NCBI GenBank assembly: GCA_964633285.1
Contig: CAZWGA010000001.1
Coordinates: 60,950 to 124,949 of the forward strand
DNA from: an uncultured Solibacteraceae bacterium
GTDB taxonomy: Bacteria; Acidobacteriota; Terriglobia; 20CM-2-55-15
Length of the DNA stretch: 64,000 nucleotides
Direction: 5' to 3'
The translations under genes were made by a program, and so were the position numbers. Shown here in pieces: positions 3 to 61,009 of the stretch (its first letter is position 1; each line of letters begins with the position of its first letter). The notes below the pieces were generated by a model that was not told the DNA's origin, did not search any database, and worked only from the letters and a program-made list of their open reading frames with translations.

Positions 3-188
3 CTGGATGTTTATCACTGCGGCGTCATCGTACGGAGCGGCGATCGAGTGCTCCTGCGTCACGCTTCGCGGAGCCGCGCAGCCGTCGTCGAACAGGAATT
101 GAGCGAGTTTTTGAAAGCCAACCGCATGGCGGGCGTGATCGTTGTTCGCCCGGCCGAGACAGCGCGCGGAACCAGGGCACGAAGTTGA
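3..188 (+). CDS. 3' end of an upstream CDS (5'-truncated by the window edge), unknown product
   Basis: Frame 3 is open from the window start to TGA at 186-188 and translates protein-like (..VIVRSGDRVLLRH..LSEFLKANRMAGVIVVRPAE..). The stop overlaps the TTG start of the next gene (TTGA). Confidence 0.3.
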   Translation: MDVYHCGVIVRSGDRVLLRHASRSRAAVVEQELSEFLKANRMAGVIVVRPAETARGTRARS

Positions 189-1471
189 AAATCGTTTTCC
201 CGAAGGATCATTCGTCCAGTGCGATTCGAGAACTGATCGGCAGCGCCGATGGCGAAGCGATTTTCATCGGCGATCCGCGCGTTCGCATCGAACCGGTTCC
301 GGACATGTTCGATCGCATGATGGAATCGATCCGGGAGGATGATGCGGGCTGGGTCTACTCGGATGCGGCAGACCGGCCCCGAGTGGATTATCAATCGGGC
401 AGTATTCGCGACACCTTCGACTTCGGTCCCGTTGTGGGGGTATCGGTGGCAGCGGCGCGGGCGGCCAATCTCGAGAGCGATTGGAAATGGGGCGGCCTTT
501 ACGATCTGCGTCTGAGGATTTCGGAAACGCATTCCATCATCAGAATTCCCGAACCACTTTACGCCGCTTCGTTGCATGATTCGCGTCCTACCGGTGAAAA
601 ACAATTCGATTACGTCGATCCGCGCAATCGCGATTATCAAATCGAAATGGAGCAAATTGCGACATCGCATTTGAAGCGAGCCGGCGCCTGGCTCGAGCCG
701 AAATTCAAGAATGTTCCACCTCCGAAGGAACAGTTTGCTGTGAAGGCGAGCGTTGTCATTCCTGTTCGAAATCGCGAACGAACGATTTGGGATGCCGTGC
801 ACAGCGCGCTCCGCCAGCGTGTGAATTTCGAATACAACGTTATTGTTGTTGATAACCATTCAACGGATAAGACCTCGGAGATTTTGCGAAGCGCCGGCGA
901 CGCGAGGTTGGTGCATCTTATTCCGGATCAGACCGGCCTCGGGATCGGCGGCTGCTGGAATGAAGCGGTGTATTCAATGCACTGCGGGCGTTACGCGGTT
1001 CAACTGGATTCCGATGATCTGTATTCCGATGACTCGGTCCTCGGCAGGCTTGTCGCTCAGCTTGAGGCCGGCCCTTACGCAATGGTTGTCGGCTCGTACA
1101 CGATGGTTGATTTTTCGCTGCAATCGATCCCGCCCGGTCTGATCGATCATCGGGAGTGGACCCGCGAAAACGGAAGGAACAATCTGCTGCGCGTTAACGG
1201 AATGGGGGCGCCGCGCGCGTTCGACACATCTATCTTGAGAGGGATCGGCTTTCCCGATGTGAGTTACGGAGAGGACTACGCAGTTGCGCTGCGCATCAGC
1301 CGCGAATATGAGATCGGCCGGATCTACGACTCGATCTATCTTTGCCGCCGCTGGGAAGGTAACACCGACAGCGCGTTACCGCATGAGACCGCGAATCGTT
1401 ACGATGCATACAAAGACTGGTTGCGAACCGTCGAGCTTCAAGCGCGAATTTCAACTTCTTATGCTGGATGA
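185..1471 (+). CDS. Family 2 glycosyltransferase (GT-A fold)
   Basis: Motifs VVIPVRNRERTIWDAVHSALRQ..YNVIVVDNHSTDKTSEIL and a downstream DSDD-type motif (QLDSDDLYS). The TTG start overlaps the previous stop. Its stop TGA at 1469-1471 overlaps the next ATG (ATGCTGGATGA). Confidence 0.65.
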   Translation: MKIVFPKDHSSSAIRELIGSADGEAIFIGDPRVRIEPVPDMFDRMMESIREDDAGWVYSDAADRPRVDYQSGSIRDTFDFGPVVGVSVAAARAANLESDWKWGGLYDLRLRISETHSIIRIPEPLYAASLHDSRPTGEKQFDYVDPRNRDYQIEMEQIATSHLKRAGAWLEPKFKNVPPPKEQFAVKASVVIPVRNRERTIWDAVHSALRQRVNFEYNVIVVDNHSTDKTSEILRSAGDARLVHLIPDQTGLGIGGCWNEAVYSMHCGRYAVQLDSDDLYSDDSVLGRLVAQLEAGPYAMVVGSYTMVDFSLQSIPPGLIDHREWTRENGRNNLLRVNGMGAPRAFDTSILRGIGFPDVSYGEDYAVALRISREYEIGRIYDSIYLCRRWEGNTDSALPHETANRYDAYKDWLRTVELQARISTSYAG

Positions 1472-2351
1472 AATTGAAAATCTATTTGCGCGGCAGGCTA
1501 AAGCCTGGCCACGACTGACGAAAGGCCTTGAAGGTCTTGCGCGCGCGCAGACCCGGCGTGTACGCGCGGGTTGGTTCGATGTGTTTGTGCGGCACATTCC
1601 GCATCGTGCCGGCAGTACAACGGCGGCGGTCGATCCGGAATCGATTTCGAAGCGGCCGTGTTTCCTGTGCGCAGGCAATCTTGATCCTGAGCAGGAGGGA
1701 ATTGCGTTCAGCCGGGACTCCACCATTTATTGCAATCCTTTTCCGATCGTCGATCGTCATCTCACAATTGTTCATCGCGATCACGGGCTTCAGCAGATTG
1801 CCGGACAATTCGACGGCATGCTCGATTTAGCGCGTGCGTTGCCTGGATATTTTGTGATCTACAACGGTCCTGAATGCGGGGCGTCTGCGCCCGATCACAT
1901 GCACTTTCAGGCAGGTTCGCGGCAATTGTTTCCGATTGAAAACGATATGACCCACCTCGACGGCATCACCATCCCGCATTACTCGAGGAATGTGTTTGTA
2001 TTTCGCGGCGGCGACAAAAAAAGCCTGGAGACTCGAGTCGGCTTCGCCATCAGTTTGTTGCCGGTGGCCGGCAAGCAGGCCGAGCCTTTGATCAACATCG
2101 TTACGTTTTATGATGCTGAACAATGGACCGTGTTTTTGTTTCCCCGCGGCAAGCACCGGCCGGAAGTTTTTCACACGGGTGAATTGACGGTGAGCCCGGC
2201 ATCCATTGATTTGTGCGGGATCTTCGTCGCGCCATTTGAAAGGGACTTTGAGCGTATCAGCGGGAACGATATCGATTCGATATTCCGTGAAGTCACACTG
2301 CCGGATGAAATGTTTGCCGAGATCGTCCAGAAACTGGAGGCGAGGCGATGA
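1461..2351 (+). CDS. HIT/GalT-like nucleotidyl-transferase/phosphorylase-fold protein (DUF4922-like)
   Basis: H-x-H-x-Q motif in ..APDHMHFQAG.. (GalT / Ap4A-phosphorylase / GDP-hexose phosphorylase branch of the HIT superfamily). ATG at 1461 was chosen because the longer TTG-1284 ORF would overlap the GT2 gene in another frame. The stop overlaps the next gene (ATGA at 2348-2351). Confidence 0.55.
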   Translation: MLDEIENLFARQAKAWPRLTKGLEGLARAQTRRVRAGWFDVFVRHIPHRAGSTTAAVDPESISKRPCFLCAGNLDPEQEGIAFSRDSTIYCNPFPIVDRHLTIVHRDHGLQQIAGQFDGMLDLARALPGYFVIYNGPECGASAPDHMHFQAGSRQLFPIENDMTHLDGITIPHYSRNVFVFRGGDKKSLETRVGFAISLLPVAGKQAEPLINIVTFYDAEQWTVFLFPRGKHRPEVFHTGELTVSPASIDLCGIFVAPFERDFERISGNDIDSIFREVTLPDEMFAEIVQKLEARR

Positions 2352-3589
2352 ATGTGGCCGTAGGTCTGGCCGAAGGCCTCAACGTCATCGAGACGGAACT
2401 GATTGGATCGTTCAGGGATGATGCCGGGAACACGTTCGGTCCGGGCCGGCAGACATTCATGCGCGAAACGGCTCTCTATCCGGTTGAGGTTTCATCGTGC
2501 GCGTTTGCCATCGACGACATCACGATTGGGATTGGGTTTCATTGGGAGCGAAAAGAGAGGCAGGTTTTTCGGGGCTCGCTGAGGATCGTAAGAACGGAAA
2601 GAGGACTCACCGCCATTAACGACGTTTCACTTGAGGAATATGTAGCGAGTGTCATTTCATCGGAGATGAGCGCGTCTTGTCCAATGGAGTTGCTGAAAGC
2701 GCATGCCGTGATTTCGCGAAGCTGGATGTGGTTTCCGAAGGAACAATCCCACGCTCTCCAGGAGAGAGCGGCGGGTCAGTCGCAGCTTGGCACGGCGGGT
2801 GAAAGCCGGGAAATCATTCGCTGGTACGGCCGCGAGGCGCATCCGGGCTTTGACGTCTGCGCCGACGATCACTGCCAGCGTTACCAGGGAATCACGAAAG
2901 CGTTTTCGCCGTCCGTCTCGGATGCCGTTCGGGCTACAGCCGGTGAGTTCCTCTTTTATGACGGATCCATCTGCGATGCGCGATTTTCGAAATCCTGTGG
3001 CGCAATGACGGAGGTGTACTCGACCGCATGGGATGATCAGGATATTCCCTATCTGACTTCGTTGTACGACGGCCCGGGCCCATCCCCTTCCCTTGATTCC
3101 GAAACACTCATTCGATCAAATGTCCGGGCGTACTGCAATACTCGGGATTCAAAGCTGCTCAGCATCATCCTTCCCGGTTTTGATCAGGAGACTCAGGATT
3201 TCTATCGATGGTGTGTGGAATACACTCCGGAAGAAACTCAGCGGTTGATCCAATCGAAGCTGAACGTGGATCTCGGCCCGATAACCGGATTGCAGCCGCT
3301 CTCCCGTGGTCCTTCGGGGCGAATTCACCGATTGAAAATTACCGGTGAACGCGGCGATCTCGTTATCGGAAAGGAACTGGAGATACGTCGCGCGTTATCG
3401 CCATCGCATCTTTACAGTTCGGCATTCGTGGTCGACAGAGAAGCCGGTAAGTTTATTCTTCGTGGCGCGGGTTGGGGACATGGAGTAGGTCTCTGCCAGA
3501 TCGGAGCGGCAGTCATGGCAACACAGGGAAAGAATTACAGAGAAATTCTCGGACACTACTATCGTGGTGCCGGTGTTGCTACCTTCTGA
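2348..3589 (+). CDS. SpoIID/LytB domain protein (putative peptidoglycan hydrolase or amidase enhancer)
   Basis: Long SpoIID-like central/C-terminal region (..HCQRYQG.., ..GAGWGHGVGLCQIGAAVMA..). Translationally coupled to the two upstream genes. Confidence 0.7.
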   Translation: MNVAVGLAEGLNVIETELIGSFRDDAGNTFGPGRQTFMRETALYPVEVSSCAFAIDDITIGIGFHWERKERQVFRGSLRIVRTERGLTAINDVSLEEYVASVISSEMSASCPMELLKAHAVISRSWMWFPKEQSHALQERAAGQSQLGTAGESREIIRWYGREAHPGFDVCADDHCQRYQGITKAFSPSVSDAVRATAGEFLFYDGSICDARFSKSCGAMTEVYSTAWDDQDIPYLTSLYDGPGPSPSLDSETLIRSNVRAYCNTRDSKLLSIILPGFDQETQDFYRWCVEYTPEETQRLIQSKLNVDLGPITGLQPLSRGPSGRIHRLKITGERGDLVIGKELEIRRALSPSHLYSSAFVVDREAGKFILRGAGWGHGVGLCQIGAAVMATQGKNYREILGHYYRGAGVATF

Positions 3590-4415
3590 CGTTGGTCGCG
3601 AGTCCGACGGCCTCCAGGCCTCGAATGACATACCATCCGATATCGACCTGCCACCAATGCCGGCTGAAGCGGGCGGATACTGGGCGCGAATGATGATTGC
3701 CGTGCCAGTTTTCGCCCCAGGCCGTCATTTGCAGAGGGCCAAGCCACCAGATGTTCTGGCTGGAGTCGACGCCTTCAGGCAAACCGGGCTTAAGGTGAAG
3801 CAGACTGTTCACGAAGCATTGCATGTGCAGGCAATAAAGAAGCCGTAGAGTTCCGAGCCAGAAGAAACCTGCCCATCCGAAAACGAAATATCCGAAGCAA
3901 AGGGAAATCGCGACGAGGGGAATTTGCAGTTTGGCCCAGAACATGTATCGAGGCTTCATCATGTCCGGGCACCACTTCGACATACTGGATGGTTCCCATT
4001 GATAGAGCCATCGGAGGTGTGCCCACCAGAAACCGCCATGACGTGGACTGGAGACATCGTCCACGGTATCCGAGTTGGCGTGATGGTTTCGGTGATTTGC
4101 GATCCACGTGCTTGGCGCCCCGGAGGCATTGAATACCGCGAAGAAAATCAGGATCTGCTCGACAACGGGATTCACTTTCACGGCCCGGTGCGCGAGGCCG
4201 CGATGATAAGCCAGCGTGGTTCCAAGACCGCCGGCTGACGCTATTGCAAGAGCAGAGAGAAAAATCCTCCAGCCGGGAAGCGGATAAAGAATTAAGCCGA
4301 TAACACCTAAAATATGGATTGAAACCAGGAAGATCATGACCCAGAAGTTTTCGCCGTCGGCTTTCCACCACGGGAGTGTCCAGGGATGTTTTTCGGCTAA
4401 TGCCGATCTACTCAT
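3579..4415 (-). CDS. Membrane fatty-acid desaturase (acyl-CoA/acyl-lipid delta9-type, three His-box)
   Basis: His boxes HRGLAH, HRNHH and HGNHH, plus several TM segments. ATG at 4415 is preceded by AGGAGG (4430..4425) with a 9-nt spacer. The longer ORF to 4622 was rejected. Confidence 0.8.
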   Translation of the reverse strand: MSRSALAEKHPWTLPWWKADGENFWVMIFLVSIHILGVIGLILYPLPGWRIFLSALAIASAGGLGTTLAYHRGLAHRAVKVNPVVEQILIFFAVFNASGAPSTWIANHRNHHANSDTVDDVSSPRHGGFWWAHLRWLYQWEPSSMSKWCPDMMKPRYMFWAKLQIPLVAISLCFGYFVFGWAGFFWLGTLRLLYCLHMQCFVNSLLHLKPGLPEGVDSSQNIWWLGPLQMTAWGENWHGNHHSRPVSARFSRHWWQVDIGWYVIRGLEAVGLATNVRR

Positions 4416-4525
4416 TCGCAGATTCCTCCTCAAGCACAAAGACGGAAATACTAGCATGTCCAAGGGTTTCTGCAGGGAGAAAACTTTTGTGATATGAACA
4501 GTTTTTGTGTTTGACTTACCCTGCC

Positions 4526-5320
4526 ATGCGCATCGACCCACAAAAATGTGTCGCCTGCGGCAACTGCGTGCCGGTCTGCCCGATGGGCGCCATTTCGATC
4601 GACCCGGAAAAGAACAGGGCATTCGTCAACGCCGATGAATGCGTTGAATGCTACTCGTGTTTTCGCGGTATGAGCATGGAGAAGCTCAATCCGACCCTGG
4701 TTCGCGGGATCCGGCGGGTTCTGAAGACGCTTCGATTGCGCTTTGATCCTGAGCCGGATGTCTGTCCCACGTCAGCCATCACGCCTGAAGAACTGGCCTG
4801 GCCGCGCATTGTGCGGCGCGCCTTCAGTGATCCGATCGTGACGCATGAAAGTACGGGTGTCCATGGACGCGGAACCGAAGAAGTGAAGACAAATGATGTC
4901 ACGAACCGGGTGGGAAGGGGGGAAGTCGGATACGTCGTCGAATTCGGCCGGCCGACTGTCGGAGTTCGCTTCCGGGATATCGAAAAAATGACGAAGGCGC
5001 TCGCGGCGCTGGGTATCGAATTCGAGCCGAAGAATCCGGTGACTCATATGATGACCGACAAAAGGATCGGCAAGCTGCGCGACGATATTCTCGACGAAAA
5101 GATTCTGTCGGCCATTGTCGAATTCAAAACGAAAATCGAAAACGTGCCGGCGGTTTTGAGGCGCGTTGATGAAGTTTCGAAGACGCTGAACACCGTTGTA
5201 TCCGTCGGTGTAGCGACGCGCTGCGATGAGCGCGGAGACAGCGCGCTGGACGCTGTTCTGGCTGAAGAAGGATTTTCGTTCTCCCGGGGTAAAACCAACC
5301 TGGGGCTGGGGCGCGCATGA
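4526..5320 (+). CDS. 4Fe-4S dicluster ferredoxin-domain protein with a C-terminal domain of unknown function
   Basis: N-terminal CxxCxxCxxxCP ... CxxCxxC (CVACGNCVPVCP, CVECYSC). Start ambiguous (TTG 4505 or ATG 4526). Its stop overlaps the next ATG (ATGA at 5317). Confidence 0.5.
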   Translation: MRIDPQKCVACGNCVPVCPMGAISIDPEKNRAFVNADECVECYSCFRGMSMEKLNPTLVRGIRRVLKTLRLRFDPEPDVCPTSAITPEELAWPRIVRRAFSDPIVTHESTGVHGRGTEEVKTNDVTNRVGRGEVGYVVEFGRPTVGVRFRDIEKMTKALAALGIEFEPKNPVTHMMTDKRIGKLRDDILDEKILSAIVEFKTKIENVPAVLRRVDEVSKTLNTVVSVGVATRCDERGDSALDAVLAEEGFSFSRGKTNLGLGRA

Positions 5321-18486: not shown

Positions 18487-20358
18487 TTAATTCTCGTCGC
18501 CCAGGAATATGGTGATGCGGTCTCCCGGGTGGATGACGGAGAGATCTTCGGTGTCGTTCCAGGAGAGTATAGCATTCACACTTGTCTTATAGGCCGTCGC
18601 GATCTTGTCCAGAGTTTCACCGGGCTGGACCTTGTGGACGACTTTGCGGGCCTGAGGCAGCTCCGCAACCACCAGTCTCTTGCCGACCGCAAGGCGGGTC
18701 GAAGACAGGTGATTCCACGTCTTGAGCTTGTCGACTGTCGTATTAAAGCGGGCGGCAATTTTGGAAAGGGTGTCGCCCGATCTCACCGTGTAGGACGTGG
18801 TTGTTGCCCGTGGGGTCGCACCCGCCGAAGTGCTGCCGGACACCCGTCGAACCGGAGCCGAATTCCGCGCGGTGAGCTGCGGAGGCGGGGTCACACCGCT
18901 CATCGGTATGATCAGCGATCGTCCTGTTTGAAGGACCGGGTTTTTGCCCAGATTGTTCGCCTGCGTCAACTGAGAGACCGTCGTTCCGTATTTCTTCGCG
19001 ATAGCCCCCAACGTGTCGCCCTTACGTACGACATGTTCTCTGAAAAGGACGCGCTTGCTCTCCGGCAATGAAGCGATTTGCTCGTTGAATTTTTCAGCGT
19101 AGCCCCTGGGCAGCACCAGTTGAAATTCAGGATCGTCGGGAGGCGTTGTCCACCGCAGGACTTGTGCATTGAGATCCCGAAGCTCTTCGACCGGCACATT
19201 GATCGCTTCCGCAATCACCCGGAGGTCCGTCGCTTTTTCAACAGGCACACGTTCAGTTTCGACGGGCTTCGCAGCAACGACGGTGAAGCCGTATTTTTCA
19301 GGATTTTTCCCGATGATCGTCAGGGCGAGGATATTCGGAACGTAGTTGATCGTTTCCTTCGGGAGGGCTTTCTTTTCGGCCAGCGTCCAGAAGTTATCGG
19401 CGCCCGTTTTGGCCAGAGCGCGCTCGACGCGGAACGGGCCGCTGTTGTATGCCGCCATCGCCAGATACCAATCCCCAAACTGCTGGTAAAGATCTTTGAG
19501 ATGGCGAGCTGCGGCACGCGTCGATTTTTCGGGATCGGACCGTTCATCAATCCACCAGGTCTGGCGAAGTCCGTACTCCTTGCCGCGCGACGAGATGAAT
19601 TGCCACATTCCCTTAGCCTGCGCTCGCGACAGGGCCTTCGGTTCAAACGCGCTTTCCGCCTGGCAAAGGAAGATCAGATCCAGCGGCACACCTTCTTCCT
19701 TGAGGATTCGCTCAATCATGGGTTGGTAGCGCCCGGCACGCTCCAGTCCTGTTTCCATGGCGCCTCGGCCGCGGCCATTCTGGTAATAATCCAGAAATCC
19801 GAGGACACGATCATTGATTTCGATGGGAAGGTCATGAGCCAGTTCTTTGACTTCCTCTTCCACAGCCTTCTTGAGTTTGGGATCGATCAGAGCCGGAAAA
19901 GTTTCAACGTGCTCCAGATCATCGATGGCGGCGTGTTCCTGGCCGGGGTCGTCGGTAAAGCCATCACCTTCCCGAAGCGCGGCCAGTTCCAGCGCATGGA
20001 CCTTGACGACCAGATCGTTCAGTTCCCGCTGAAGACGGGCTTCTTTCGTATAAGTGCCGGATGTTTCCAAAAGGAGATCGATGGCGCCGTCGAATTCCTG
20101 TTTGGATTGTTTCAGGTAACCCTGCTTATAAAGATCTTCGCCGTGCTCAAACCGCATTTGGGCTTCGACGATCGCCAGTTCCACGGGATCATTCCAGTTG
20201 ACCTGCTGAAGTTGCGTCGGAAGTGGCATCGGCAGAGGCTCGGGATGGGCTTCGATTCGGGGCAGCGGTGGGGGAGCAACTTTCACCAGTTTGGGTGGTG
20301 GCGCTGTGCACCCAGCCAGAAGACCGAGGACGGCCAGACCCTTAAATAAAGGTTTCAA
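18487..20358 (-). CDS. mltD: Membrane-bound lytic murein transglycosylase D-like lipoprotein (SLT domain + 3 LysM)
   Basis: Lipobox LLAGC. SLT motif ..ESAFEPKALSRAQAKGMWQF..AYNSGP... Three LysM repeats (..HVVRKGDTLGAIAKKYG.., ..YTVRSGDTLSKIAARF.., ..HKVQPGETLDKIATAY..). Confidence 0.85.
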   Translation of the reverse strand: MKPLFKGLAVLGLLAGCTAPPPKLVKVAPPPLPRIEAHPEPLPMPLPTQLQQVNWNDPVELAIVEAQMRFEHGEDLYKQGYLKQSKQEFDGAIDLLLETSGTYTKEARLQRELNDLVVKVHALELAALREGDGFTDDPGQEHAAIDDLEHVETFPALIDPKLKKAVEEEVKELAHDLPIEINDRVLGFLDYYQNGRGRGAMETGLERAGRYQPMIERILKEEGVPLDLIFLCQAESAFEPKALSRAQAKGMWQFISSRGKEYGLRQTWWIDERSDPEKSTRAAARHLKDLYQQFGDWYLAMAAYNSGPFRVERALAKTGADNFWTLAEKKALPKETINYVPNILALTIIGKNPEKYGFTVVAAKPVETERVPVEKATDLRVIAEAINVPVEELRDLNAQVLRWTTPPDDPEFQLVLPRGYAEKFNEQIASLPESKRVLFREHVVRKGDTLGAIAKKYGTTVSQLTQANNLGKNPVLQTGRSLIIPMSGVTPPPQLTARNSAPVRRVSGSTSAGATPRATTTSYTVRSGDTLSKIAARFNTTVDKLKTWNHLSSTRLAVGKRLVVAELPQARKVVHKVQPGETLDKIATAYKTSVNAILSWNDTEDLSVIHPGDRITIFLGDEN

Positions 20359-34717: not shown

Positions 34718-35244
34718 TTCGCTAGCTCCCTGATTCTTGCTTTAAATGCATCGAGCGGTACCTTCTGAACGCTCGGCGTCTCGGACATGCGTCCCGTTTT
34801 CGGATCGACGATGGTCGCTCCCGCTGAATTCGAGATCGCAAGGTTGTCGACGAGATCGTACTTTCCCTGGCCGAGGCCCACGATATCGAACGTTCCGTTT
34901 GATTGATTCTGGAGGAAGACAATGACGCGGTCGCCCGCCTTGAACTGTGGCGTTCCGGAGACAGTCAAATTCAGCGCGCCTAGTTTCCCGCCAGGCTGTC
35001 TGATGAGCAGCGCCCGCCGTGGCGCTCCCTTGAAAGATTCATCCACGCGAATCGACGCATAAGTAAAGATGAGGTCACTCTCCCAGCGCGCTTCGACGGA
35101 CTCGACAGTGCCTTGCACTACCGAGTCTGACTTGGAGACCATCTCAGGCAATTCCATCTTTCTCACGCTCGATGCGAGCGCCGGCACGGCAAGGACAAGC
35201 GCCGTCAGAATCATGAAGCTTCGATTACGTATTAGTGTGCTCAT
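34714..35244 (-). CDS. Hypothetical secreted protein
   Basis: Signal peptide (MILTALVLAVPALASS). Coupled by ATGA overlaps to both neighbours. Confidence 0.5.
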   Translation of the reverse strand: MSTLIRNRSFMILTALVLAVPALASSVRKMELPEMVSKSDSVVQGTVESVEARWESDLIFTYASIRVDESFKGAPRRALLIRQPGGKLGALNLTVSGTPQFKAGDRVIVFLQNQSNGTFDIVGLGQGKYDLVDNLAISNSAGATIVDPKTGRMSETPSVQKVPLDAFKARIRELAK

Positions 35245-37349
35245 CGGATGAATACTCCTCCCGTCAATATGGACGTATCCAGATTGGAATTCGTCACGAT
35301 GACATTTCTTGGCCCGAGCGCCGCAGTTGCGTCCACGGTGACTTTCACAAGAACGAAGTTGTCCTGGAAGACGTAGTTACTCACCGTTACGCCGCCGCCG
35401 CTCACGGAAACCGTCGTCCCGGCTGCTGAGCCCAAACCCGTACCGACAATTCCCATTAATTTGGATGTTCCTCGCGGAAGATCACCGCTGGAAACGTTAA
35501 ACGCAATTTCCGTTGCGGCCAGCTCGACAATTCCGATTCTCGTCACGCTCAATCCCGCAACGGCTGGTGCAACGTAGATGTCGGCGTTGGCCGTCGTTGC
35601 TCCGCCGGTCACCGTTACCGTGCTCTGTACGAGCGCGCCGGTTGACGTCACCTGAAGAATCTTCGAACTTGAACTTTGTCCTCCGGTCTGCACGAACACG
35701 GGTCCGGAAATTGCGGCGGAAGGAACAGTAACGGTCAATGATGTTGACGATCCGGCGGATGGTGTTGCGTTTACTGTGCCGTTGGCGCTGGTAAAGACCA
35801 CGGTGTTGTTCGCGAAAGTCGAATCGAACCCCGAGCCCGCCAGCGTGATCGCGGAACCACGGTTCTGGCTTGACGGCGAAACGGAAGTCAACACCAGCGG
35901 CTGAACCGCGACATTCGACGTCAACGTCAGCGACAGCGTGCTTGCATTCTGTTTGAAGAATCGCAGACTGCCGCTTGCGCTCTGTCCCGAACTGCCGCTG
36001 TAAAGCACGAACTGCGTTGTATAACCGCCGCCGTTGACAATGTGGGGAAAATCGAACTCCGCGGTTGACGCTGCCGTCGCTTCATTGGACGGCGGTGTGG
36101 TGGTAATCAGAAAATCACCGCGTTCGTTCGTGCGCGTGCGCAATCCGACAACGGAAATGCCGGAAGACGTGGTCGTAATTCGAACCAGCCCCGTGAAAGG
36201 CAGAGTCAGGTTCGGAAACAACTCATTCAGAAACTTTGCCGTCTGGCCCTGGCCTGCAACGGTGATGGAGTTCGTGAGTCCCGTTGAAGCTCCACTGGCA
36301 TTGAACGCTTCGAACGTGACCGTCGCCTGCGAACTCGATCCATTCGCCACGGCGATTCCGGTTTGAATGGATGACGAACCCTCCGCATAAACGCGGAAAG
36401 CCGTTCCGAGATTCGTGGGCACGCCCGCCTGCGTTACAGTGACGCTCCCCGGCTTGTAGGAAAACACAACGAGCGGTACGGGAGTGCTGCTCCCGGATGA
36501 GGGAGCGATGGAAACGGATCCGCTGCTTGTGTTCGCGCCCGCGCCGCTGGTCGTGAGTTTGAACGATCCTCTTCGCGGGAGCGAATAACTGAAACTGGCG
36601 CTGCTTTGTCCGTTCGCAGTGAGTGGGGATGCCGCGCCGGCGCCATTGCGGAACTGGATGGTTCCCGTCATTGCCGTGTCGGTCGGATTCACAAGAATCA
36701 CCGAAGTCGTCCATCCGCCCCCGTCGGCAAAATGCGGCAGGAGAACTGAAGAAGTGCCTGCGGCAACGGACGTGTCGATGACCGGCAGCGTTGTGATCAG
36801 GAAATCGCCGCGTTCGTTAGTGAAGCCCTGCAGCGCCACCACCGAAATCGGTACATTGCTGCTGAACGAAAACGTGCCCTGAATGCCCGTTCCACCGTTG
36901 TATGGAGCCTGGTCCAGAAACTCTGCTACCTGGCCTCCAGCGGGGATCGTACGCGACCCCGACCCGAAATCGGTTCCATCGAATTTCGTAAACGAAAACG
37001 TCACGGTTGCCGCCGTGGAATTGGGGTTGGCGATCGCCAGGCCGATATCCAGCCCGCCGTTGACTTCCGCATAAATGCGGCCCGTGCGCAACAGCGGCGA
37101 GGCAGGAACACCCGCTTCCGCGACAAGCACATTGTTCGTTCGAAAACCGAAAATGGCGACCCCCGAAGGAGTGGTGGACCCGCTGTCGGCGACAATCCTC
37201 GCATATCCCACATTCAAATCGCCCGCGCCATCCGTAGACAGGGAATTCGCGCTGCGATCGGTGAGGGAATAGGAGCGAGTTGCCGCCTGGCTCCACGCCA
37301 GCCTGGGTAATGCCAGGACAAGCATGAAAAACGCAATTCTTACTTTCAT
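35241..37349 (-). CDS. Large secreted protein with internal about-100-aa repeats and C-terminal IPT/TIG-like beta-sandwich domains
   Basis: Signal peptide MKVRIAFFMLVLALPRLAWSQ. Motif ..TNERGDFLITT.. repeated, ..FP/LPHFADGGGWTT.. repeated. Ser/Thr/Gly-rich C-terminal Ig-like segments. Confidence 0.6.
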   Translation of the reverse strand: MKVRIAFFMLVLALPRLAWSQAATRSYSLTDRSANSLSTDGAGDLNVGYARIVADSGSTTPSGVAIFGFRTNNVLVAEAGVPASPLLRTGRIYAEVNGGLDIGLAIANPNSTAATVTFSFTKFDGTDFGSGSRTIPAGGQVAEFLDQAPYNGGTGIQGTFSFSSNVPISVVALQGFTNERGDFLITTLPVIDTSVAAGTSSVLLPHFADGGGWTTSVILVNPTDTAMTGTIQFRNGAGAASPLTANGQSSASFSYSLPRRGSFKLTTSGAGANTSSGSVSIAPSSGSSTPVPLVVFSYKPGSVTVTQAGVPTNLGTAFRVYAEGSSSIQTGIAVANGSSSQATVTFEAFNASGASTGLTNSITVAGQGQTAKFLNELFPNLTLPFTGLVRITTTSSGISVVGLRTRTNERGDFLITTTPPSNEATAASTAEFDFPHIVNGGGYTTQFVLYSGSSGQSASGSLRFFKQNASTLSLTLTSNVAVQPLVLTSVSPSSQNRGSAITLAGSGFDSTFANNTVVFTSANGTVNATPSAGSSTSLTVTVPSAAISGPVFVQTGGQSSSSKILQVTSTGALVQSTVTVTGGATTANADIYVAPAVAGLSVTRIGIVELAATEIAFNVSSGDLPRGTSKLMGIVGTGLGSAAGTTVSVSGGGVTVSNYVFQDNFVLVKVTVDATAALGPRNVIVTNSNLDTSILTGGVFIR

Positions 37350-48859: not shown

Positions 48860-50665
48860 GTGTTTCTTGCAACAACAGCCCTTACCGACTTCTGGGATAA
48901 AGAGAGCAGCGGAGTTTTTCTTGGGGAATGGTGTAAGCGCCGGGACCGACGCGCCGATTGGGACGGGTTGAACTATACGACGTTGCAATGCATCTGGAAC
49001 GATCGTGTTCGTTACTATGAAGCAGCAGCTTACGTCACAAGTTGTTGCGAGCGAATACTGGAACGGCTCGCCAGATATCTCAACGTTGTCCACGGTCTCG
49101 ATAACAATATCCGATACTGGAATATTCTGATTGGCGCGTGGCTGATTCATTACGTGCACTGCATCTACGATCGATACGTCCACCTGTCGCAGGCCTTTTC
49201 ACTCTTTCCTGAACTCGAAACGATCGTTCTGGACAAACGCGATTTCAAGACCCCTGCAAAAACTCATGAAGCAATACTCTCTTTGTGCGAAGACCCTTAT
49301 AACCTTCAAGTCTGTTCACAACTCATAGAAGAAATGGGGTATCGCTTTCCCACAAAACGGTTCTCGGCGAAACTCGCTGAGCCAAACGCGGAAACTCAAC
49401 AGCCGACATTACGAGCGCATCTTCGCAACGCTGTTAGGGCTGCGAATTCGACGCTCACAAGAAGCCTTTCCTGGAAAAAGCGGGGAGTCGTTTGCGATTT
49501 GGATTGGCCAACACGAGATGTCGGCGAACTGGTTCGTCAGAGCCGTTTCAATATTCTCTCGCTGGAGAAACGCACGGCCCAATGGAAGATTCCCGCTGCA
49601 ACTTTCGACAACAAACGTGAGGGACTCCGAAACTTGAGCGCCGAGACCACTCTGGAGCGTCTGTGCGTTAACCTGCTTCCCCAGAATTTTCCTACGCTCT
49701 ATCTGGAGGGGTTCAAAGAAGGCCGGGAGCAAGGCATGCAGGCGTATTCCCAGCAATTTCCAAAATTCGCGATGTCGGCCGTGGGCTGGTCCTACAACGA
49801 GGAATTCAAGTTTTGGGCAGCAGAGGCGTCACAACATGGGACGCAGCTTATCGGTGTGCAGCACGGCGGCGGCTATGGCGTGTTTCGTTTTGCTCCGTAC
49901 GAAATTCACGAGAACAAATTGACGGACTTCTATGCCACGTGGGGATGGGGTGTTGACGGTTCTTCCAAATACGTGCCGCTTCCAAATCCGAAGCTTGCGA
50001 TCGTTCGCCGGGCACGAACGGACGCCGCGTCGAGTGGCAAGATTCTCTTTGCGGCACACGATGAGCCTCGTTATCTGTTCCGGTTTCACTCCGCGCCGGT
50101 TGGGCCCCAGGCCTCCGAACTTGCGGATCTGGAAATCCGGTTTCTGAAATCCATGCCCGCCACAGTCCTTTCGCGTATTGTTTTCAGGAAGTATCCCGGT
50201 GATTTTGGAAATGCTGTTCGTGAATACATCGGAAACAAATTTCCTGATTTGAAATGGGACCAGCAGTCCTCGTTCTATGCGAGCGTTGCGAATTGCGAAC
50301 TGGTCGTGTTCGATCACTGCGGAACAGGGTTCCTGGAGTCCCTGGCCGCGAATGTTCCCACTCTGATTTTTTGGGATCCCGAGCGATGGGAACTTCGGGG
50401 TGAGGCCGTGCCTTATTTTGAACTGCTCCATCAGGCAGGCATCCTCCACTTTACGCCGGAATCGGCAGCCTCCGCGCTCGCAGAGATCTCCTCGAATATC
50501 GGTTCTTGGTGGCTGACCCCGGCGGTTCAGGAAGCCCGGCGCCGGTTCGTGAAACAGTACGCGCTTGAAAGCGACGGTTGGGCCGGTCTTTGGCTTCAGA
50601 GTATTCGCGGCTGCGTTTCTGACCAACCTCCGGCAACAGCCAAATACAGGCGGGAATCGATATGA
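48860..50665 (+). CDS. Large hypothetical protein (about 600 aa), possibly a LIC12162-type putative transferase of nonulosonic-acid loci
   Basis: 601-aa ORF with good coding composition in the middle of the sugar locus. Family assignment is from memory only. Confidence 0.5.
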   Translation: MFLATTALTDFWDKESSGVFLGEWCKRRDRRADWDGLNYTTLQCIWNDRVRYYEAAAYVTSCCERILERLARYLNVVHGLDNNIRYWNILIGAWLIHYVHCIYDRYVHLSQAFSLFPELETIVLDKRDFKTPAKTHEAILSLCEDPYNLQVCSQLIEEMGYRFPTKRFSAKLAEPNAETQQPTLRAHLRNAVRAANSTLTRSLSWKKRGVVCDLDWPTRDVGELVRQSRFNILSLEKRTAQWKIPAATFDNKREGLRNLSAETTLERLCVNLLPQNFPTLYLEGFKEGREQGMQAYSQQFPKFAMSAVGWSYNEEFKFWAAEASQHGTQLIGVQHGGGYGVFRFAPYEIHENKLTDFYATWGWGVDGSSKYVPLPNPKLAIVRRARTDAASSGKILFAAHDEPRYLFRFHSAPVGPQASELADLEIRFLKSMPATVLSRIVFRKYPGDFGNAVREYIGNKFPDLKWDQQSSFYASVANCELVVFDHCGTGFLESLAANVPTLIFWDPERWELRGEAVPYFELLHQAGILHFTPESAASALAEISSNIGSWWLTPAVQEARRRFVKQYALESDGWAGLWLQSIRGCVSDQPPATAKYRRESI

Positions 50666-52197
50666 GGAATGGCGTCATCCATCGGTTCCTCGCGAGTTTT
50701 GTTGCCAACTTCTGCCGGATGGGAATATCCGTTTTCACGGGACTCGTCGTCGCACGAGGTCTGGGAGTCGAGCGTTTCGGCGACCTGAATTTTCTTCTGG
50801 CGAGCTTTGCGGCGATCTCTCAATTGGTTGAAATGGGAAGTGCGTCGGCCTTTTATACGCTGATTTCCCGAAGACCGCGGGAGCGCACCTTCTTCGGCGT
50901 TTATGTCGTGTGGGTTTCAATACAGTTCGTGATCATTGCGGCTCTAGTGCTTTTTCTCCCTTCGCAACTGTTCGGCCGGGTGTGGTTCGATCATCAGAGA
51001 GGTATTGTTTTGATGGCCCTGGCTGCAACGTTCTTTTCAACACAGATATGGGCCTTGATCAGCCAGCTTAGTGAAGCGTTGCGAAAAACGGTGCTGATCC
51101 AGACGGTGTCTGTCGTTCAGGCCGCTGCACACCTGTTGCTTATTGCCGCCCTCATTTACCTCAAAGCGTTGTCGGTCTGGACCGTACTGTTGCTTCTTGT
51201 TCTGGAATACGCGGTTATCGCATTAATTCTGGGGCCACGGCTGATTCTCGGAAACATCAATCCGTCGGCGATTCGCCAGGACAGTACAGCGATTTTGAAA
51301 GAATTTGTTACTTATTGCACGCCATTGGTTGTTTATGCAGGCGCAGGTTTTCTCTACGCGTTTGCGGATCGCTGGTTTCTCCAGTTGTACGGTGGTTCAC
51401 AGCAGCAGGGATTCTTTTCGCTCTCTCAACAAATATCGAGTGTGAGTCTCATTGCCACCACTTCGATGTCCAGAGTCTTCTGGAAAGAAGTTGCGGAGGC
51501 GCGCCATTTGGAGAATCACTCGCGAGTGACGGCATTGTATGACAACGTTTTGAGGGGCCTTTACTTTGCATCCGCATGGTTGAGTTGCCTGCTTATTCCC
51601 TACAGCAGAGAACTCCTGCGTACGTTTTTGGGACCTTCGTTCGAGCCCGCCTGGCTGGCATTCAGCATCATGCTGATTTACCCGATTCATCAGTCGATTG
51701 GGCAAGTGACCGGTTCATTTCTTTGGGCCAGCGCGGATACCGGCATGTACGCCCGCGTTGGAATTGCAACAATGCTGGTTGGTGTACCCGTCACATACTT
51801 TCTGTTGGCGCCTCCGAACGCTCGCATTCCGGGATTCTCGCTCGGGGCGACCGGCCTTGCCCTGAAGCTGGTTGTGCTTCAGCTTCTGGCGGTCAATGTA
51901 CAAATGTTCTTTATCGCAAGAAAAGACCGGACGCAGTCGCACATTTCCTATCAGTTCTTTGTGCTCCTGCTCTTGCTCGGTCTGAGCGCTTTGTGCAAGG
52001 CCGGAGTGGATTTCCTCTTCAAGCTTGTTTGGCCCGGAGCGCCGACATTGGGAATCGCGGCTGCCGGCGGTCTCGCGTACATCGCCATTTCATTGTCGGG
52101 CATCGCGGTGGCCCCGGGTCTTCTGGGAATGAGCCGTGATCAGCTACGAATCGCGATCAGCCGGGTTGGGAGCGCCCTCATGCCGTCGCAGGCCTGA
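50662..52197 (+). CDS. wzx: Wzx-type oligosaccharide flippase (MOP superfamily)
   Basis: About 12-14 TM helices. Polysaccharide-biosynthesis-protein N-terminal pattern. Confidence 0.7.
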   Translation: MRNGVIHRFLASFVANFCRMGISVFTGLVVARGLGVERFGDLNFLLASFAAISQLVEMGSASAFYTLISRRPRERTFFGVYVVWVSIQFVIIAALVLFLPSQLFGRVWFDHQRGIVLMALAATFFSTQIWALISQLSEALRKTVLIQTVSVVQAAAHLLLIAALIYLKALSVWTVLLLLVLEYAVIALILGPRLILGNINPSAIRQDSTAILKEFVTYCTPLVVYAGAGFLYAFADRWFLQLYGGSQQQGFFSLSQQISSVSLIATTSMSRVFWKEVAEARHLENHSRVTALYDNVLRGLYFASAWLSCLLIPYSRELLRTFLGPSFEPAWLAFSIMLIYPIHQSIGQVTGSFLWASADTGMYARVGIATMLVGVPVTYFLLAPPNARIPGFSLGATGLALKLVVLQLLAVNVQMFFIARKDRTQSHISYQFFVLLLLLGLSALCKAGVDFLFKLVWPGAPTLGIAAAGGLAYIAISLSGIAVAPGLLGMSRDQLRIAISRVGSALMPSQA

Positions 52198-58487: not shown

Positions 58488-59111
58488 TTGTTCCGATTTT
58501 TTTCACGAATCCGAAAAGAATTCTATTTGTGGATCGATGGAATCGCCGCACAACTGCCGGGCAATGCCGGAATTATCCTGCGGCGAATCTGGGTAGCGAA
58601 ACGCGTCGCGAAACTCGGCGCCGGAGCGACGATCGAAACCGGAACGTTTTTTCGATGCGGTAACAATATTTCGCTTGGCGAGTCCTTCACGTTGTTACGC
58701 GGATCGATTCTGGGCGCGTGTGATGGAAAATTGACGATCGGCGATCGCGTCTCCATCAATTCGGGCAGTGTTGTTGACGCATCGGCCGGGGGAAATATCA
58801 CCATTCACAACGATGCCTTGATTGGACCCAACGTTGTGATTCGCGCGAGCAATCATGCTTTCGATGCCGTGAACGTTCCCATGAATCGGCAAGGCCATAC
58901 CGGCGGCCGGATCATCATCGAAGAAGATGTGTGGATTGGCGCAAACGCCACTATTGTTCCCGGCGTGACCATTGGCGCGCACGCCGTTGTGGGCGCCGGT
59001 GCGGTTGTTACTCAAAATGTAGAACCGTGGACCATTGTAGGCGGTGTTCCCGCGAGGTTGATAAGAAACCGCCGGCCCGCCGCTTCCATCGTTGGTAATT
59101 CCGCTCTATGA
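58488..59111 (+). CDS. Hexapeptide-repeat acetyltransferase
   Basis: LbH repeats ..IGANATIVPGVTIGAHAVVGAGAVV... Confidence 0.7.
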   Translation: MFRFFSRIRKEFYLWIDGIAAQLPGNAGIILRRIWVAKRVAKLGAGATIETGTFFRCGNNISLGESFTLLRGSILGACDGKLTIGDRVSINSGSVVDASAGGNITIHNDALIGPNVVIRASNHAFDAVNVPMNRQGHTGGRIIIEEDVWIGANATIVPGVTIGAHAVVGAGAVVTQNVEPWTIVGGVPARLIRNRRPAASIVGNSAL

Positions 59112-61009
59112 GTTCCATCAGCATCGTTTCGCGTTCCCGGTGCGGCCGTCTCAATCCTGATTCAAAGGACACCGTGTGGATTTACGCGGGGACCGATTGC
59201 CTTTTCTATTGGAAAGTTTCGAATGGCGTGTTCAGGAACGTGAAGTGTGCGATCGAGCCGGGAGATTTCCAGACGTTCGTCACAAGGCAGCGCGCCGATT
59301 TTGTTCGCTGGTCCAACCGGCACGTATCGGCCTTCTCTGCACAGAACTGGCTTAGTGATCCCTTCGATAGAAATCCCGAGAACAATCTCTTTCTTTATTT
59401 CTGCTGGCTGGCATGGATTCAGGAATGGTTGGCGAATCATTCCAGCCGCCTCATTGTTGTCGTCGACGATTGCGCGATGGCGGCGGCTGTGGCCAGGCTT
59501 TCTCGAAGGAATCAAATCGATCTCGTAACCGATTACGGTGATCTTGTTTTCGATTGTGTGAAACGGCTGATGAGGGTCCTCGCTGTTTCGGGTTTTCGGC
59601 TCGTCGAATGGATTTACCGAAGTGTTCTTGCAAAAACAATACTGCGAGCGCCAACGCTATCTTCAAAGCCTGCGATTCTGATTACGACATATTTTCTGGG
59701 TAACGGTTGCATTGATTCCAACGGTGTCTTCAGGGATCGTTACCTGCCGGGGTTGCTGGAACTTTACGAACGCAATGGATTCGATGTCATCGTAGCGCCC
59801 ACGTTTTATGACATTCCGTTGAAGCATTTTCCACGAATCTACACCTTCATGGCACGTTCGAAAACGAAGTTTATCGTTGCCGAACAATTCGTTCCGGTCC
59901 GAGGCCAGATCGCCGCTCTGCTGTCGTGGTTGGCTCTGGTATGGCGAACGTTGATTCCCGGCGGTCCTTCGAGATTTATCCGGAATGAGGATCTGTACGG
60001 GACTGTTCGGGATCTGGCGCTCAGGAATACGCTCATCGCCTTTCCATTTCTCGTCAGTGGCCAGGTTCCCCGGTTCGCTGCAAAACGGGGCATGAAGCTG
60101 GAAGCGATGATTCAATGGTACGAGAATCAGCCGAAGGACAAGTATGTGCTGCTGAATTTTCGCCGGTGTTACCCAAACGCTATCAGCATCGCAGCGCAGA
60201 GTTACTGCATTTGCGGCAATTACCTCAGTTTGCCGATTACACGGGAAGAGCGAGCTGCCGGCATCGCGCCCGATCAGATTTGGATTCCCGGCGCTGCGAC
60301 GATGAAGATTCACGCCGCTTATGATGGAGAAGCGATTTCGAAGTATCGTCCGATGCCGGCACTGCGCTATCAACAGATATTTGAAACCGCGAGAAAGCGG
60401 CAGCATCAGAACAGCGGAGGAAAATTCACAATGACGATTTTGCTTCCGCATTCTGTGCCGGATTCGATTTACATGCTGTGGTGCGCCGCCGCCGCTATAA
60501 CTCACGTGCAGGAGCACGGCGGTGAAGTCCGAATCAAAACGCATCCTATTGTCACGATGCATGACATTCAACAAAGTGCGAATTCGAACGGAGTGAGGCT
60601 TGATGGGGCGATGAAGTGGGTGGATCTGCCGGTCGAGCAACTCCTCGTCGATACGGATTTGGTTCTGACCGGCGGGAGTTCCGCTGCGCTGGAAGCCGTT
60701 GCATGCGGTGTCCCGGCGCTGGTCGTCGGGTTCGTCGCCGGGTTGGATCTGAATCCTCTGGAAGCTGCGGACAAGAGGCTTTGGAGTCTCGTCTACGATC
60801 AGGAGCAAGCAGTCCGGGCAGTGCAGAGGTGGATGTCGGCAGATGCCATGCCGTCCAAAGAAAGGCTTGAGGTAGCGCGGGAGATTTTGAAAACTCACTT
60901 TGTCGAGTTACGCAACGAAGATGAAAAACTGTTTTGCCGCATGCTCGGGAATCATGCGATGACGGATGCCGGGAGTTCCAGTGTGAATCTGGTTCACGCG
61001 GCTAACTGA
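59108..61009 (+). CDS. Large hypothetical protein (633 aa), possible GT-B-like glycosyltransferase / capsule-polysaccharide synthesis protein
   Basis: C-terminal ..LVLTGGSSAALEAVACGVPALVV.. resembles a GT-B nucleotide-sugar-binding half. No confident family. Confidence 0.5.
   Translation: MSSISIVSRSRCGRLNPDSKDTVWIYAGTDCLFYWKVSNGVFRNVKCAIEPGDFQTFVTRQRADFVRWSNRHVSAFSAQNWLSDPFDRNPENNLFLYFCWLAWIQEWLANHSSRLIVVVDDCAMAAAVARLSRRNQIDLVTDYGDLVFDCVKRLMRVLAVSGFRLVEWIYRSVLAKTILRAPTLSSKPAILITTYFLGNGCIDSNGVFRDRYLPGLLELYERNGFDVIVAPTFYDIPLKHFPRIYTFMARSKTKFIVAEQFVPVRGQIAALLSWLALVWRTLIPGGPSRFIRNEDLYGTVRDLALRNTLIAFPFLVSGQVPRFAAKRGMKLEAMIQWYENQPKDKYVLLNFRRCYPNAISIAAQSYCICGNYLSLPITREERAAGIAPDQIWIPGAATMKIHAAYDGEAISKYRPMPALRYQQIFETARKRQHQNSGGKFTMTILLPHSVPDSIYMLWCAAAAITHVQEHGGEVRIKTHPIVTMHDIQQSANSNGVRLDGAMKWVDLPVEQLLVDTDLVLTGGSSAALEAVACGVPALVVGFVAGLDLNPLEAADKRLWSLVYDQEQAVRAVQRWMSADAMPSKERLEVAREILKTHFVELRNEDEKLFCRMLGNHAMTDAGSSSVNLVHAAN

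Follow-up and report, generated by a model that had tools for sequence, protein, structure and literature searches.

A conserved GT2-DUF4922-SpoIID-like gene module with a putative role in cytoplasmic peptidoglycan salvage

The 5' end of a 64,000-nucleotide stretch of DNA from an uncultured Solibacteraceae bacterium (assembly GCA_964633285.1, contig CAZWGA010000001.1, positions 60,950 to 124,949; hereafter the window) carries three co-directional, overlapping open reading frames (ORFs) encoding a family 2 glycosyltransferase (GT2), a DUF4922 protein and a SpoIID/LytB-domain (SpoIID-like) protein, preceded by the end of a gene for a putative AmiA-like amidase (Table 1). The nearest named relatives of the window proteins are found in Candidatus Binatus and Binataceae metagenome-assembled genomes, at 67-77% identity; by protein similarity, Binatota would be the most likely source.

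The gene block and its proteins

An initial annotation, made from sequence alone, had described a trio joined by the overlaps TTGA, ATGCTGGATGA and ATGA. All three overlaps are present, but TTGA is not internal to the trio: it joins the GT2 gene to the upstream AmiA-like ORF, so the unit consists of four genes, not three. The overlap of 4 nucleotides (nt) between AmiA-like and GT2 genes is also found in the gene calls of four relatives (L001-L004), and the GT2/DUF4922 junction, of 11 nt in the window, is a 4-nt overlap in relatives. At the DUF4922-to-SpoIID junction, 28/49 evaluable loci from four phyla have a 4-nt overlap, and 33/49 have an overlap of any kind. The DUF4922 start was placed at 1461, and not at 1284 as in a mechanical ORF list, because relatives begin at the homologous methionine. 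Inside the block, promoter-like or terminator-like sites were not above shuffle expectation. At its 3' end, the SpoIID-like gene overlaps a convergent gene of the fatty-acid-desaturase family (PF00487), with no terminator-like site between the two.

Table 1. Position of the gene block, its sequence motifs and other features of the window
Feature	Position	Strand	Remarks
AmiA-like gene, 3' end	3..188	+	First gene of the block; 61 codons and stop, truncated by the window start
TTGA junction	185..188	+	GT2 TTG start / AmiA-like TGA stop; read from sequence and translation
GT2 glycosyltransferase	185..1471	+	TTG start, 428 aa
GT-A metal/nucleotide-binding DxD motif D275-S-D-D278	1007..1018	+	Invariant in 57/57 module GT2 sequences
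11-nt overlap, ATGCTGGATGA	1461..1471	+	DUF4922 start / GT2 stop; read from sequence
DUF4922 protein	1461..2351	+	ATG start, 296 aa
HxHxQ active-site motif H146-M-H148-F-Q150	1896..1910	+	H146, H148 and Q150 invariant in 77-sequence alignment
ATGA junction	2348..2351	+	SpoIID-like start / DUF4922 stop; read from sequence
SpoIID/LytB-domain protein	2348..3589	+	ATG start, 413 aa
Codon of Glu106 in 'SSEM'	2663..2665	+	Predicted catalytic acid/base of lytic-transglycosylase fold; aligns with 'ASEM' of SpoIID structure 4rwr
Zn-site-like motif H165...C171-x3-H175-C176, HPGFDVCADDHC	2840..2875	+	All four residues invariant, 60/60 sequences
11-nt convergent overlap	3579-3589		SpoIID-like gene / desaturase gene
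Fatty-acid-desaturase-family gene (PF00487)	3579-4622	-	Converges on SpoIID-like gene
SLT lytic transglycosylase with three LysM domains (MltD-like)	18490-20358	-	623 aa
ORF without Pfam match at E <= 1e-5	35244-37349	-	702 aa
ORF without Pfam match, then Polysacc_synt (Wzx-like flippase) gene	48860-52197	+	First ORF 601 aa
Segment of negative AT skew	50001-52000		AT skew -0.22
ORF without Pfam match at E <= 1e-5	59108-61006	+	633 aa

From its sequence, the upstream ORF appears to encode the C-terminus of an AmiA-like NlpC/P60-type N-acetylmuramoyl-L-alanine amidase. The fragment in the window contains only the catalytic His region 'LDVYHCGVI'. Its score with PF07313 (formerly DUF1460) is 27.3 bits (cut-off 27), and it is 64-80% identical (tblastn) to full-length genes at the same position in relatives. 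One of these (L001:8008-8730) matches PF07313 and the Bacteroides uniformis DUF1460 structures 4h4j/4q5k (E 5e-16), with both the Cys and the His aligned. AmiA-like copies from Binatota and most Acidobacteriota have no signal; a lipoprotein-type signal is present in three Bacteroidota loci and one Acidobacteriota locus (L052:7158-8048, L062:3565-4425, L085:8941-9819 and L075:7507-8382). Lineages thus appear to differ in the compartment where the amidase acts, which would fit removal of the peptide before or after import. In 4/12 distinct Binatota loci (L001:7323-7976, L006, L010 and L011), the AmiA-like gene is immediately preceded by a co-directional gene of ~217 amino acids (aa) with no Pfam or NCBIfam match, which may be a fifth member of the module and would fall just outside the window.

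The GT2 protein matches Glycos_transf_2 (PF00535; 72.5 bits, cut-off 23.3) over residues 189-319. It has two domains, an N-terminal one (residues 1-185), for which a Pfam scan of the ~185 residues matched no family, and a C-terminal GT-A domain running from residue 189 past 319; no NCBIfam equivalog model reached its cut-off. Together with the DxD motif, the downstream acidic residues E363-D364 are invariant in the alignment of 57 module sequences, and the protein is unusually conserved, with a mean column identity of 60% across phyla. It is soluble, having no transmembrane or hydrophobic segment (maximum KD19 hydrophobicity 1.08). An AlphaFold2 model built with database homologues is of moderate quality (pLDDT 73.6) and supports a two-GT-A-like architecture only; its fold matches to K4CP, SpsA, TarS and GpgS (E 1e-11 to 1e-6) indicate a GT-A fold.

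In bacteria, DUF4922 corresponds to the N-terminal domain of the eukaryotic phosphorylases that act on GDP-L-galactose and GDP-D-glucose. The family is small: 1.8 billion representatives include ~1,520 of its clusters (50% identity). The window protein matches PF16269 at 168 bits (cut-off 23.6). A PF26216 (GDPGP1_C) assignment is precomputed for an identical protein and was not recovered in a Pfam scan of the C-terminal half made here, and the NCBIfam GalT equivalogs reached only 16-19 bits against cut-offs of >765. In an alignment of 77 diverse representatives, H100 is invariant besides the HxHxQ motif, and C67 and C70 are near-invariant. The motif corresponds to H164-P-H166-G-Q168 of E. coli GalT, and His148 is predicted to be the nucleotidyl-accepting residue. 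A fold search was needed because a sequence search against the PDB gave no match at E <= 1. The AlphaFold2 model built on the 77-sequence alignment (pLDDT 96.4) has yeast Ap4A phosphorylase Apa2 as its best Foldseek match (E 1.2e-11, TM ~0.6), followed by E. coli and human GalT (1hxq, 5e-4), Arabidopsis ADP-glucose phosphorylase (2h39, 1.7e-3) and small HIT proteins. By this model, the protein has a double-HIT (GalT/Apa2-type) fold and belongs to the GalT branch of the HIT superfamily, which bears out the earlier description of the middle protein as GalT-like with an HxHxQ motif; it is predicted to be a nucleotidyl-transferring enzyme acting on sugar phosphates or nucleoside diphosphate (NDP) sugars.

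The third protein matches the SpoIID/LytB model TIGR02669 (174.2 bits, cut-off 83.3) and PF08486 (86.2 bits, cut-off 23), completing the three family assignments first proposed, and does not reach the score required of genuine stage II sporulation protein D (equivalog TIGR02870; 139.2 against 234.75 bits). Its Glu106 is invariant in 60/60 module sequences, as is the His/Cys motif, a putative Zn site as in the C. difficile SpoIID structure. Because these residues are invariant, the protein is regarded as an enzyme and not as a dead domain. The N-terminal ~85 aa are specific to the subfamily ('VGL...GFHWER'), and a Pfam scan of the first 91 aa gave no match.

The SpoIID-like ORF is the longest possible, with no upstream extension, and begins at a conserved '(E)PxhxVGh' motif, which leaves no room for a signal peptide. 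No signal peptide or membrane anchor was found in ~70 module homologues from every phylum sampled, cultured Bacteroides included, and the window protein has no hydrophobic segment (maximum KD19 1.29). Export signals are likewise lacking from GT2 and DUF4922 in all sampled phyla. In natural fusions of DUF4922 to SpoIID, neither the linker nor the N-terminus has a hydrophobic segment. As expected of positive controls, the helices of AmpG, the muropeptide permease, and the signal peptide carried by a 1013-aa secreted protein scored higher; the signal peptide of NamZ is evident in its N-terminal sequence, yet its KD19 of 1.43 lies within the range of the fusion proteins. Since its homologues have no export signal and some are fused to the cytoplasmic DUF4922 protein without a membrane-spanning linker, this subfamily is predicted to work in the cytoplasm alongside a nucleotide-dependent enzyme, and not as an extracytoplasmic form of the peptidoglycan-remodelling protein named in the initial annotation.

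Conservation, neighbours and fusions

A scan of one genome per species gave 579 confirmed DUF4922 relatives, and 80 loci with 10-kb flanks were examined by ORF calling, all-against-all clustering and homology labelling. These maps derive from a crude longest-ORF caller, with taxon labels taken from database records, and a few misses (for example L015, L016 and L018) are probably calling artefacts. A GT2 gene lies within two genes upstream of DUF4922 in 12/12 Binatota, 10/12 Acidobacteriota, 41/45 Bacteroidota and 3/8 Ignavibacteriota loci, and a SpoIID-like gene within two genes downstream in 12/12, 9/12, 36/45 and 3/8, respectively. AmiA-like genes are present within three genes upstream in 10/12 Binatota and 6/12 Acidobacteriota loci, in 3/45 Bacteroidota loci (between GT2 and DUF4922) and in 0/8 Ignavibacteriota loci. 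AmpG follows within four genes downstream in 32/45 Bacteroidota and 3/8 Ignavibacteriota loci, and in 0/12 of both Binatota and Acidobacteriota. In the latter two phyla, the remaining flanks vary from locus to locus.

The arrangement exceeds chance, because gene order and overlaps are kept in close relatives with differing flanks (loci whose DUF4922 proteins are 72% and 67% identical to that of the window), the 4-nt junction recurs in four phyla and the partners are fused in some proteins. The block is co-translated, and its products probably form a complex. The proposal that the genes form one functional unit stands on this conservation of order and overlaps and on the fusions; the two points on which it had been made to depend, HIT-fold similarity of the middle protein and a neighbourhood conserved across phyla, were both found, the latter in Binatota, Acidobacteriota, Bacteroidota and Ignavibacteriota.

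In Bacteroidota, the trio lies directly upstream of AmpG (identified by TIGR00901). These loci add NamZ (GH171 exo-muramidase), a MurQ-type SIS etherase and a FAD/Fe-S D-lactate-dehydrogenase-like protein, all three identified by Pfam, as well as a NagK/MurK-like kinase, NagB, a NagX/MurT-like membrane protein and several secreted enzymes. Independent gene calls from the cultured Dysgonomonas gadei give the order GT2-DUF4922-SpoIID-MFS-NamZ. Across four phyla, the module is linked either to a muramoyl-L-alanine amidase or, in Bacteroidota and Ignavibacteriota, to a muropeptide importer and catabolic genes for N-acetylmuramic acid (MurNAc). In the window itself, tblastn searches for AmpG, NamZ, MurQ, MurK and NagB, and a hidden Markov model search for AmpG, gave nothing relevant.

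Several DUF4922 representatives are DUF4922-SpoIID, GT2-DUF4922 or GNAT-DUF4922 fusion proteins. The two DUF4922-SpoIID loci have AmpG and a D-Ala-D-Ala ligase (Ddl) in one case (L087) and an AmgK-like anomeric kinase for MurNAc or N-acetylglucosamine (GlcNAc) in the other (L088); neither has a GT2 gene nearby, indicating that GT2 is not always adjacent. Of the GNAT-DUF4922 loci, L086 has a Peptidase_M15_4 gene, with an AmgK-like kinase 6 kb from the fusion, and L089 a convergent AmiA-like gene.

Some loci depart from the common pattern or extend it. In three Ignavibacteriota loci (L058, L076 and L046) the order is SpoIID-like, GT4-family (GT-B) glycosyltransferase, DUF4922, with GT4 in the usual place of GT2. 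A secreted protein of ~1013 aa (Golvesin_C and fn3; no NCBIfam match; for example L045:4989-8030, L025 and L060) is encoded in 30/45 Bacteroidota loci, at the head of the operon in most, and is a candidate for a missing periplasmic peptidoglycan-processing activity. Between the SpoIID-like gene and AmpG, 12 Bacteroidota loci encode a secreted fusion of GH9 and a polysaccharide deacetylase (CE4; for example L041:6662-9127); this and the GNAT fusions hint at the handling of de-N-acetylated glycan.

Elsewhere in the window, the SLT/LysM protein is a plausible periplasmic source of anhydromuropeptides for the module. The negative AT skew probably reflects T-rich membrane-protein coding sequence in a polysaccharide locus, where an ORF with no Pfam match is followed by the Wzx-like flippase gene. 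Two further large ORFs had no Pfam match (Table 1).

Salvage of peptidoglycan turnover products and its alternatives

The Bacteroidota arrangement has a published counterpart. In Tannerella forsythia, the operon Tanf_08345-08385 encodes a 'xanthan lyase' (putative lyase), gtf, gtf, lytB, ampG, ybbC/namZ1, murT, murK and murQ; it is expressed as one transcript, directly activated by GppX, and is tied to growth on muropeptides (PMC5388701). AmpG of this organism imports GlcNAc-MurNAc and GlcNAc-anhMurNAc, the latter of which sustains growth, "no AnmK ortholog ... is predicted" and the downstream route "remains to be explored" (PMC7670621). In 2021 the functions of both gtf genes and Tanf_08345 were still described as unknown, and Tanf_08360 was described as a putative lytic transglycosylase (bioRxiv 10.1101/2021.12.02.470905). 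The order of the operon matches that of the Bacteroidota loci (secreted 1013-aa protein, GT2, DUF4922, SpoIID-like, AmpG, NamZ, membrane protein, MurK-like, MurQ), and by gene order and annotation the two are the same; the 1013-aa protein is probably the 'xanthan lyase' Tanf_08345.

The block is best read as a cytoplasmic module that salvages peptidoglycan turnover products, a pathway-level assignment to which we give a probability of about 0.6. The module would act in the cytoplasm on imported, peptide-free GlcNAc-(1,6-anhydro)MurNAc, and may explain how bacteria without AnmK reuse anhydro-muramic acid. The salvage direction is favoured because of the linkage to importer and catabolic genes. 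The initial annotation had left a choice between cell-wall glycan modification and recycling, and the AmpG, NamZ and MurQ neighbours in Bacteroidota and the AmiA-like neighbours in Binatota and Acidobacteriota speak for recycling or salvage and not for modification.

Under this assignment, periplasmic lytic transglycosylases would release GlcNAc-1,6-anhydroMurNAc-peptides, which a permease would import, and the AmiA-like amidase would strip the stem peptide, as a cytoplasmic enzyme in the window's lineage and as an exported lipoprotein in Bacteroidota. The lytic-transglycosylase fold classically needs peptide-free glycan, a logic followed by the pairing of SpoIIP with SpoIID. The SpoIID-like enzyme would then bind the denuded disaccharide and carry out transglycosylase chemistry at its 1,6-anhydro end, opening the anhydro ring to water or a sugar acceptor in place of AnmK; chemistry at this end would be the most economical role for a cytoplasmic enzyme of transglycosylase fold, and would fill the AnmK gap. 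GT2 and DUF4922 would share an NDP-N-acetylhexosamine (NDP-HexNAc) intermediate, as supported by the GT2-DUF4922 fusions. GT2 would run in reverse, followed by phosphorolysis or nucleotidyl exchange by DUF4922, or, less likely, the pair would run forward from HexNAc-1-phosphate; the energy of the glycosidic or anomeric bond would be kept as HexNAc-1-phosphate or NDP-HexNAc, feeding the UDP-GlcNAc and UDP-MurNAc pools. The specific chemistry of ring opening and of the GT2 and DUF4922 steps is offered tentatively and is doubtful in its details. A bolder form, somewhat less likely still, is that in Bacteroidota, Ignavibacteriota, Acidobacteriota and Binatota the trio is an ATP-sparing complex that replaces AnmK, and possibly NagZ/AmgK, through ring opening by SpoIID-like transglycosylation, reverse GT2 transfer to NDP and a HIT/GalT-type step yielding HexNAc-1-phosphate or UDP-MurNAc, in effect 'phosphorolysis by proxy'.

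Several observations weigh against salvage or against this route to it. The functions of all three proteins are predicted from sequence, structure models and context. No homologue of AmpG, NamZ, MurQ or MurK turned up in any Binatota or Acidobacteriota locus examined, and in the window's lineage the peptidoglycan link comes from the AmiA-like and SpoIID-like families only. The homologue search returned Tannerellaceae and Dysgonomonas proteins and no named T. forsythia protein, making equivalence with the published operon one of order and annotation only. Hydrolytic ring opening needs one enzyme, and obligatory GT2 and DUF4922 partners are not explained by necessity. Reverse GT2 activity is thermodynamically uphill, and we know of no precedent for it on peptidoglycan sugars. 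Nor is the trio needed merely to split GlcNAc-MurNAc, because bacteria containing NamZ mostly have NagZ too (PMC8054146); for the same reason, the idea that the trio simply replaces NagZ was down-weighted.

The GNAT fusions and AmgK-like neighbours also fit the opposite direction, from HexNAc-1-phosphate through NDP-HexNAc to a glycoside, equally well. In such a biosynthetic scheme, DUF4922 would turn HexNAc-1-phosphate, provided by an AmgK-like kinase or a GlmU-like GNAT, into NDP-HexNAc, GT2 would build a cytoplasmic HexNAc/MurNAc glycoside or short glycan, and the SpoIID-like enzyme would cut this to an anhydro-sugar, for example as a signal or re-export intermediate. The fusions recall the acetyltransferase-plus-uridylyltransferase logic of GlmU, AmgK-like kinases adjoin or lie near DUF4922 genes, GT2 resembles the processive two-GT-A-domain polymerase K4CP and its forward direction is thermodynamically normal. 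However, cells would on balance spend ATP to make anhydro-sugars, compounds that they otherwise take up and break down, the block has no conserved flippase, lipid-carrier enzyme or exporter beside it, and the linkage to the importer AmpG and to catabolic MurQ, NagB and D-lactate dehydrogenase argues for breakdown or salvage. Biosynthesis is considered unlikely, though as the main rival of salvage it retains a real share of the probability.

Highly improbable is a classical extracytoplasmic role, with remodelling of the sacculus by the SpoIID/LytB protein (acting as lytic transglycosylase or amidase enhancer) and modification of a wall glycan or polysaccharide by GT2 and DUF4922. It would agree with all characterised SpoIID/LytB proteins, which to our knowledge act outside the membrane, but not with the ~70 module homologues that start at the conserved domain motif without signal peptide or transmembrane segment, with fusions free of hydrophobic linkers and N-terminal signals, with a GT2 that has no transmembrane segment, or with the low SpoIID equivalog score (139 against 234.75). 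In one relative (L005), Wzy_C and Poly_export genes lie a few kb upstream; these are not conserved at other loci, and an exopolysaccharide reading drawn from them was rejected. Least credible of all is nucleotide-sugar housekeeping unrelated to peptidoglycan, with GT2 and DUF4922 making or proof-reading a small molecule derived from NDP-hexose (compare GDPGP1 quality control and glucosylglycerate-type solutes) and the SpoIID-like protein serving as a repurposed binding module, since the eukaryotic DUF4922 proteins that are GDP-hexose phosphorylases and the weak similarity of GT2 to soluble small-molecule GT-A enzymes such as GpgS are set against invariant SpoIID-like catalytic residues and recurrent neighbours that are all peptidoglycan-related (AmpG, NamZ, MurQ, AmiA-like, Peptidase_M15_4, Ddl and AmgK-like).

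Detailed knowledge of peptidoglycan recycling comes from only a few Proteobacteria and Firmicutes, and the salvage reading bears on a stated gap, the growth of T. forsythia on AmpG-imported GlcNAc-anhMurNAc without AnmK and with three muropeptide-operon genes of no known function. The gene types of this gap form a tightly coupled module in no fewer than four phyla, among them Bacteroidota abundant in the gut and Acidobacteriota and Binatota from soil, and three purified proteins with a single substrate would allow a direct test. If salvage is correct, it would represent a new branch of cell-wall recycling, a first function for bacterial DUF4922 and a SpoIID-fold enzyme active in the cytoplasm, with relevance to how Bacteroidota of the gut and mouth release muropeptides and affect host immune signalling.

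Comparison with known systems

Compared with the T. forsythia operon, the window contains the core only (AmiA-like gene and trio), with no AmpG, NamZ or MurKQ nearby. In the literature reached, no characterisation of bacterial DUF4922 or of the trio was found. The protein families are already known, and the gene cluster is drawn in the T. forsythia papers; the cross-phylum cytoplasmic GT2-DUF4922-SpoIID-like module with its AmiA-like gene, its fusions and the signal-less SpoIID subfamily appear undescribed.

The module would draw on the substrate stream of canonical Gram-negative recycling (AmpG, AmpD, NagZ, AnmK and MurQ, or MupP, AmgK and MurU), AmpG-imported GlcNAc-anhMurNAc-peptides, and would share its first cytoplasmic step, in which an amidase takes off the stem peptide. 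In the module this amidase is of the NlpC/P60 type (AmiA-like) and not AmpD, the block has no NagZ or AnmK, and GT2, HIT/GalT-like and SpoIID-like enzymes stand instead, all foreign to the canonical pathway. The upstream gene appears to belong to the same family (PF07313) as Bacteroides uniformis AmiA (DUF1460; 4h4j, 4q5k), although only 61 of its residues lie within the window. AmiA is reported to be specific for GlcNAc-1,6-anhydroMurNAc-peptides.

Members of the HIT/GalT branch (GalT of the Leloir pathway, ADP-glucose phosphorylase, VTC2/GDPGP1 and Apa2) have in common with the DUF4922 protein the fold, the DUF4922/GDPGP1_C domains and the HxHxQ motif with an upstream CxxC and His. The window protein differs in being only 12-16% identical to any solved member, and bacterial DUF4922 in its link with peptidoglycan genes instead of galactose or ascorbate metabolism. 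For GT2, the top match by PDB profile and by Foldseek is the E. coli K4 chondroitin polymerase K4CP, which has two tandem GT-A domains, with both halves aligned. The identity is only 18-19% and the TM-score ~0.35-0.38, and polymerase activity of the module GT2 is unsupported. Its N-terminal domain lacks any Pfam match with a DxD and may have no catalytic role.

The SpoIID/LytB domain, the 'SEM' catalytic Glu and the His/Cys motif are common to the module protein, to SpoIID of Bacillus and Clostridioides (with SpoIIP) and to the chlamydial SpoIID homologue, and the SpoIID/SpoIIP system and the module would follow a common logic in which an amidase strips the peptides first. Classical SpoIID, however, has a membrane anchor, and its target is the sacculus, outside the cytoplasm, whereas the module subfamily has neither anchor nor signal and is set apart by its extra N-terminal region of ~85 aa, its equivalog score below the cut-off and, in some lineages, its fusion to DUF4922.

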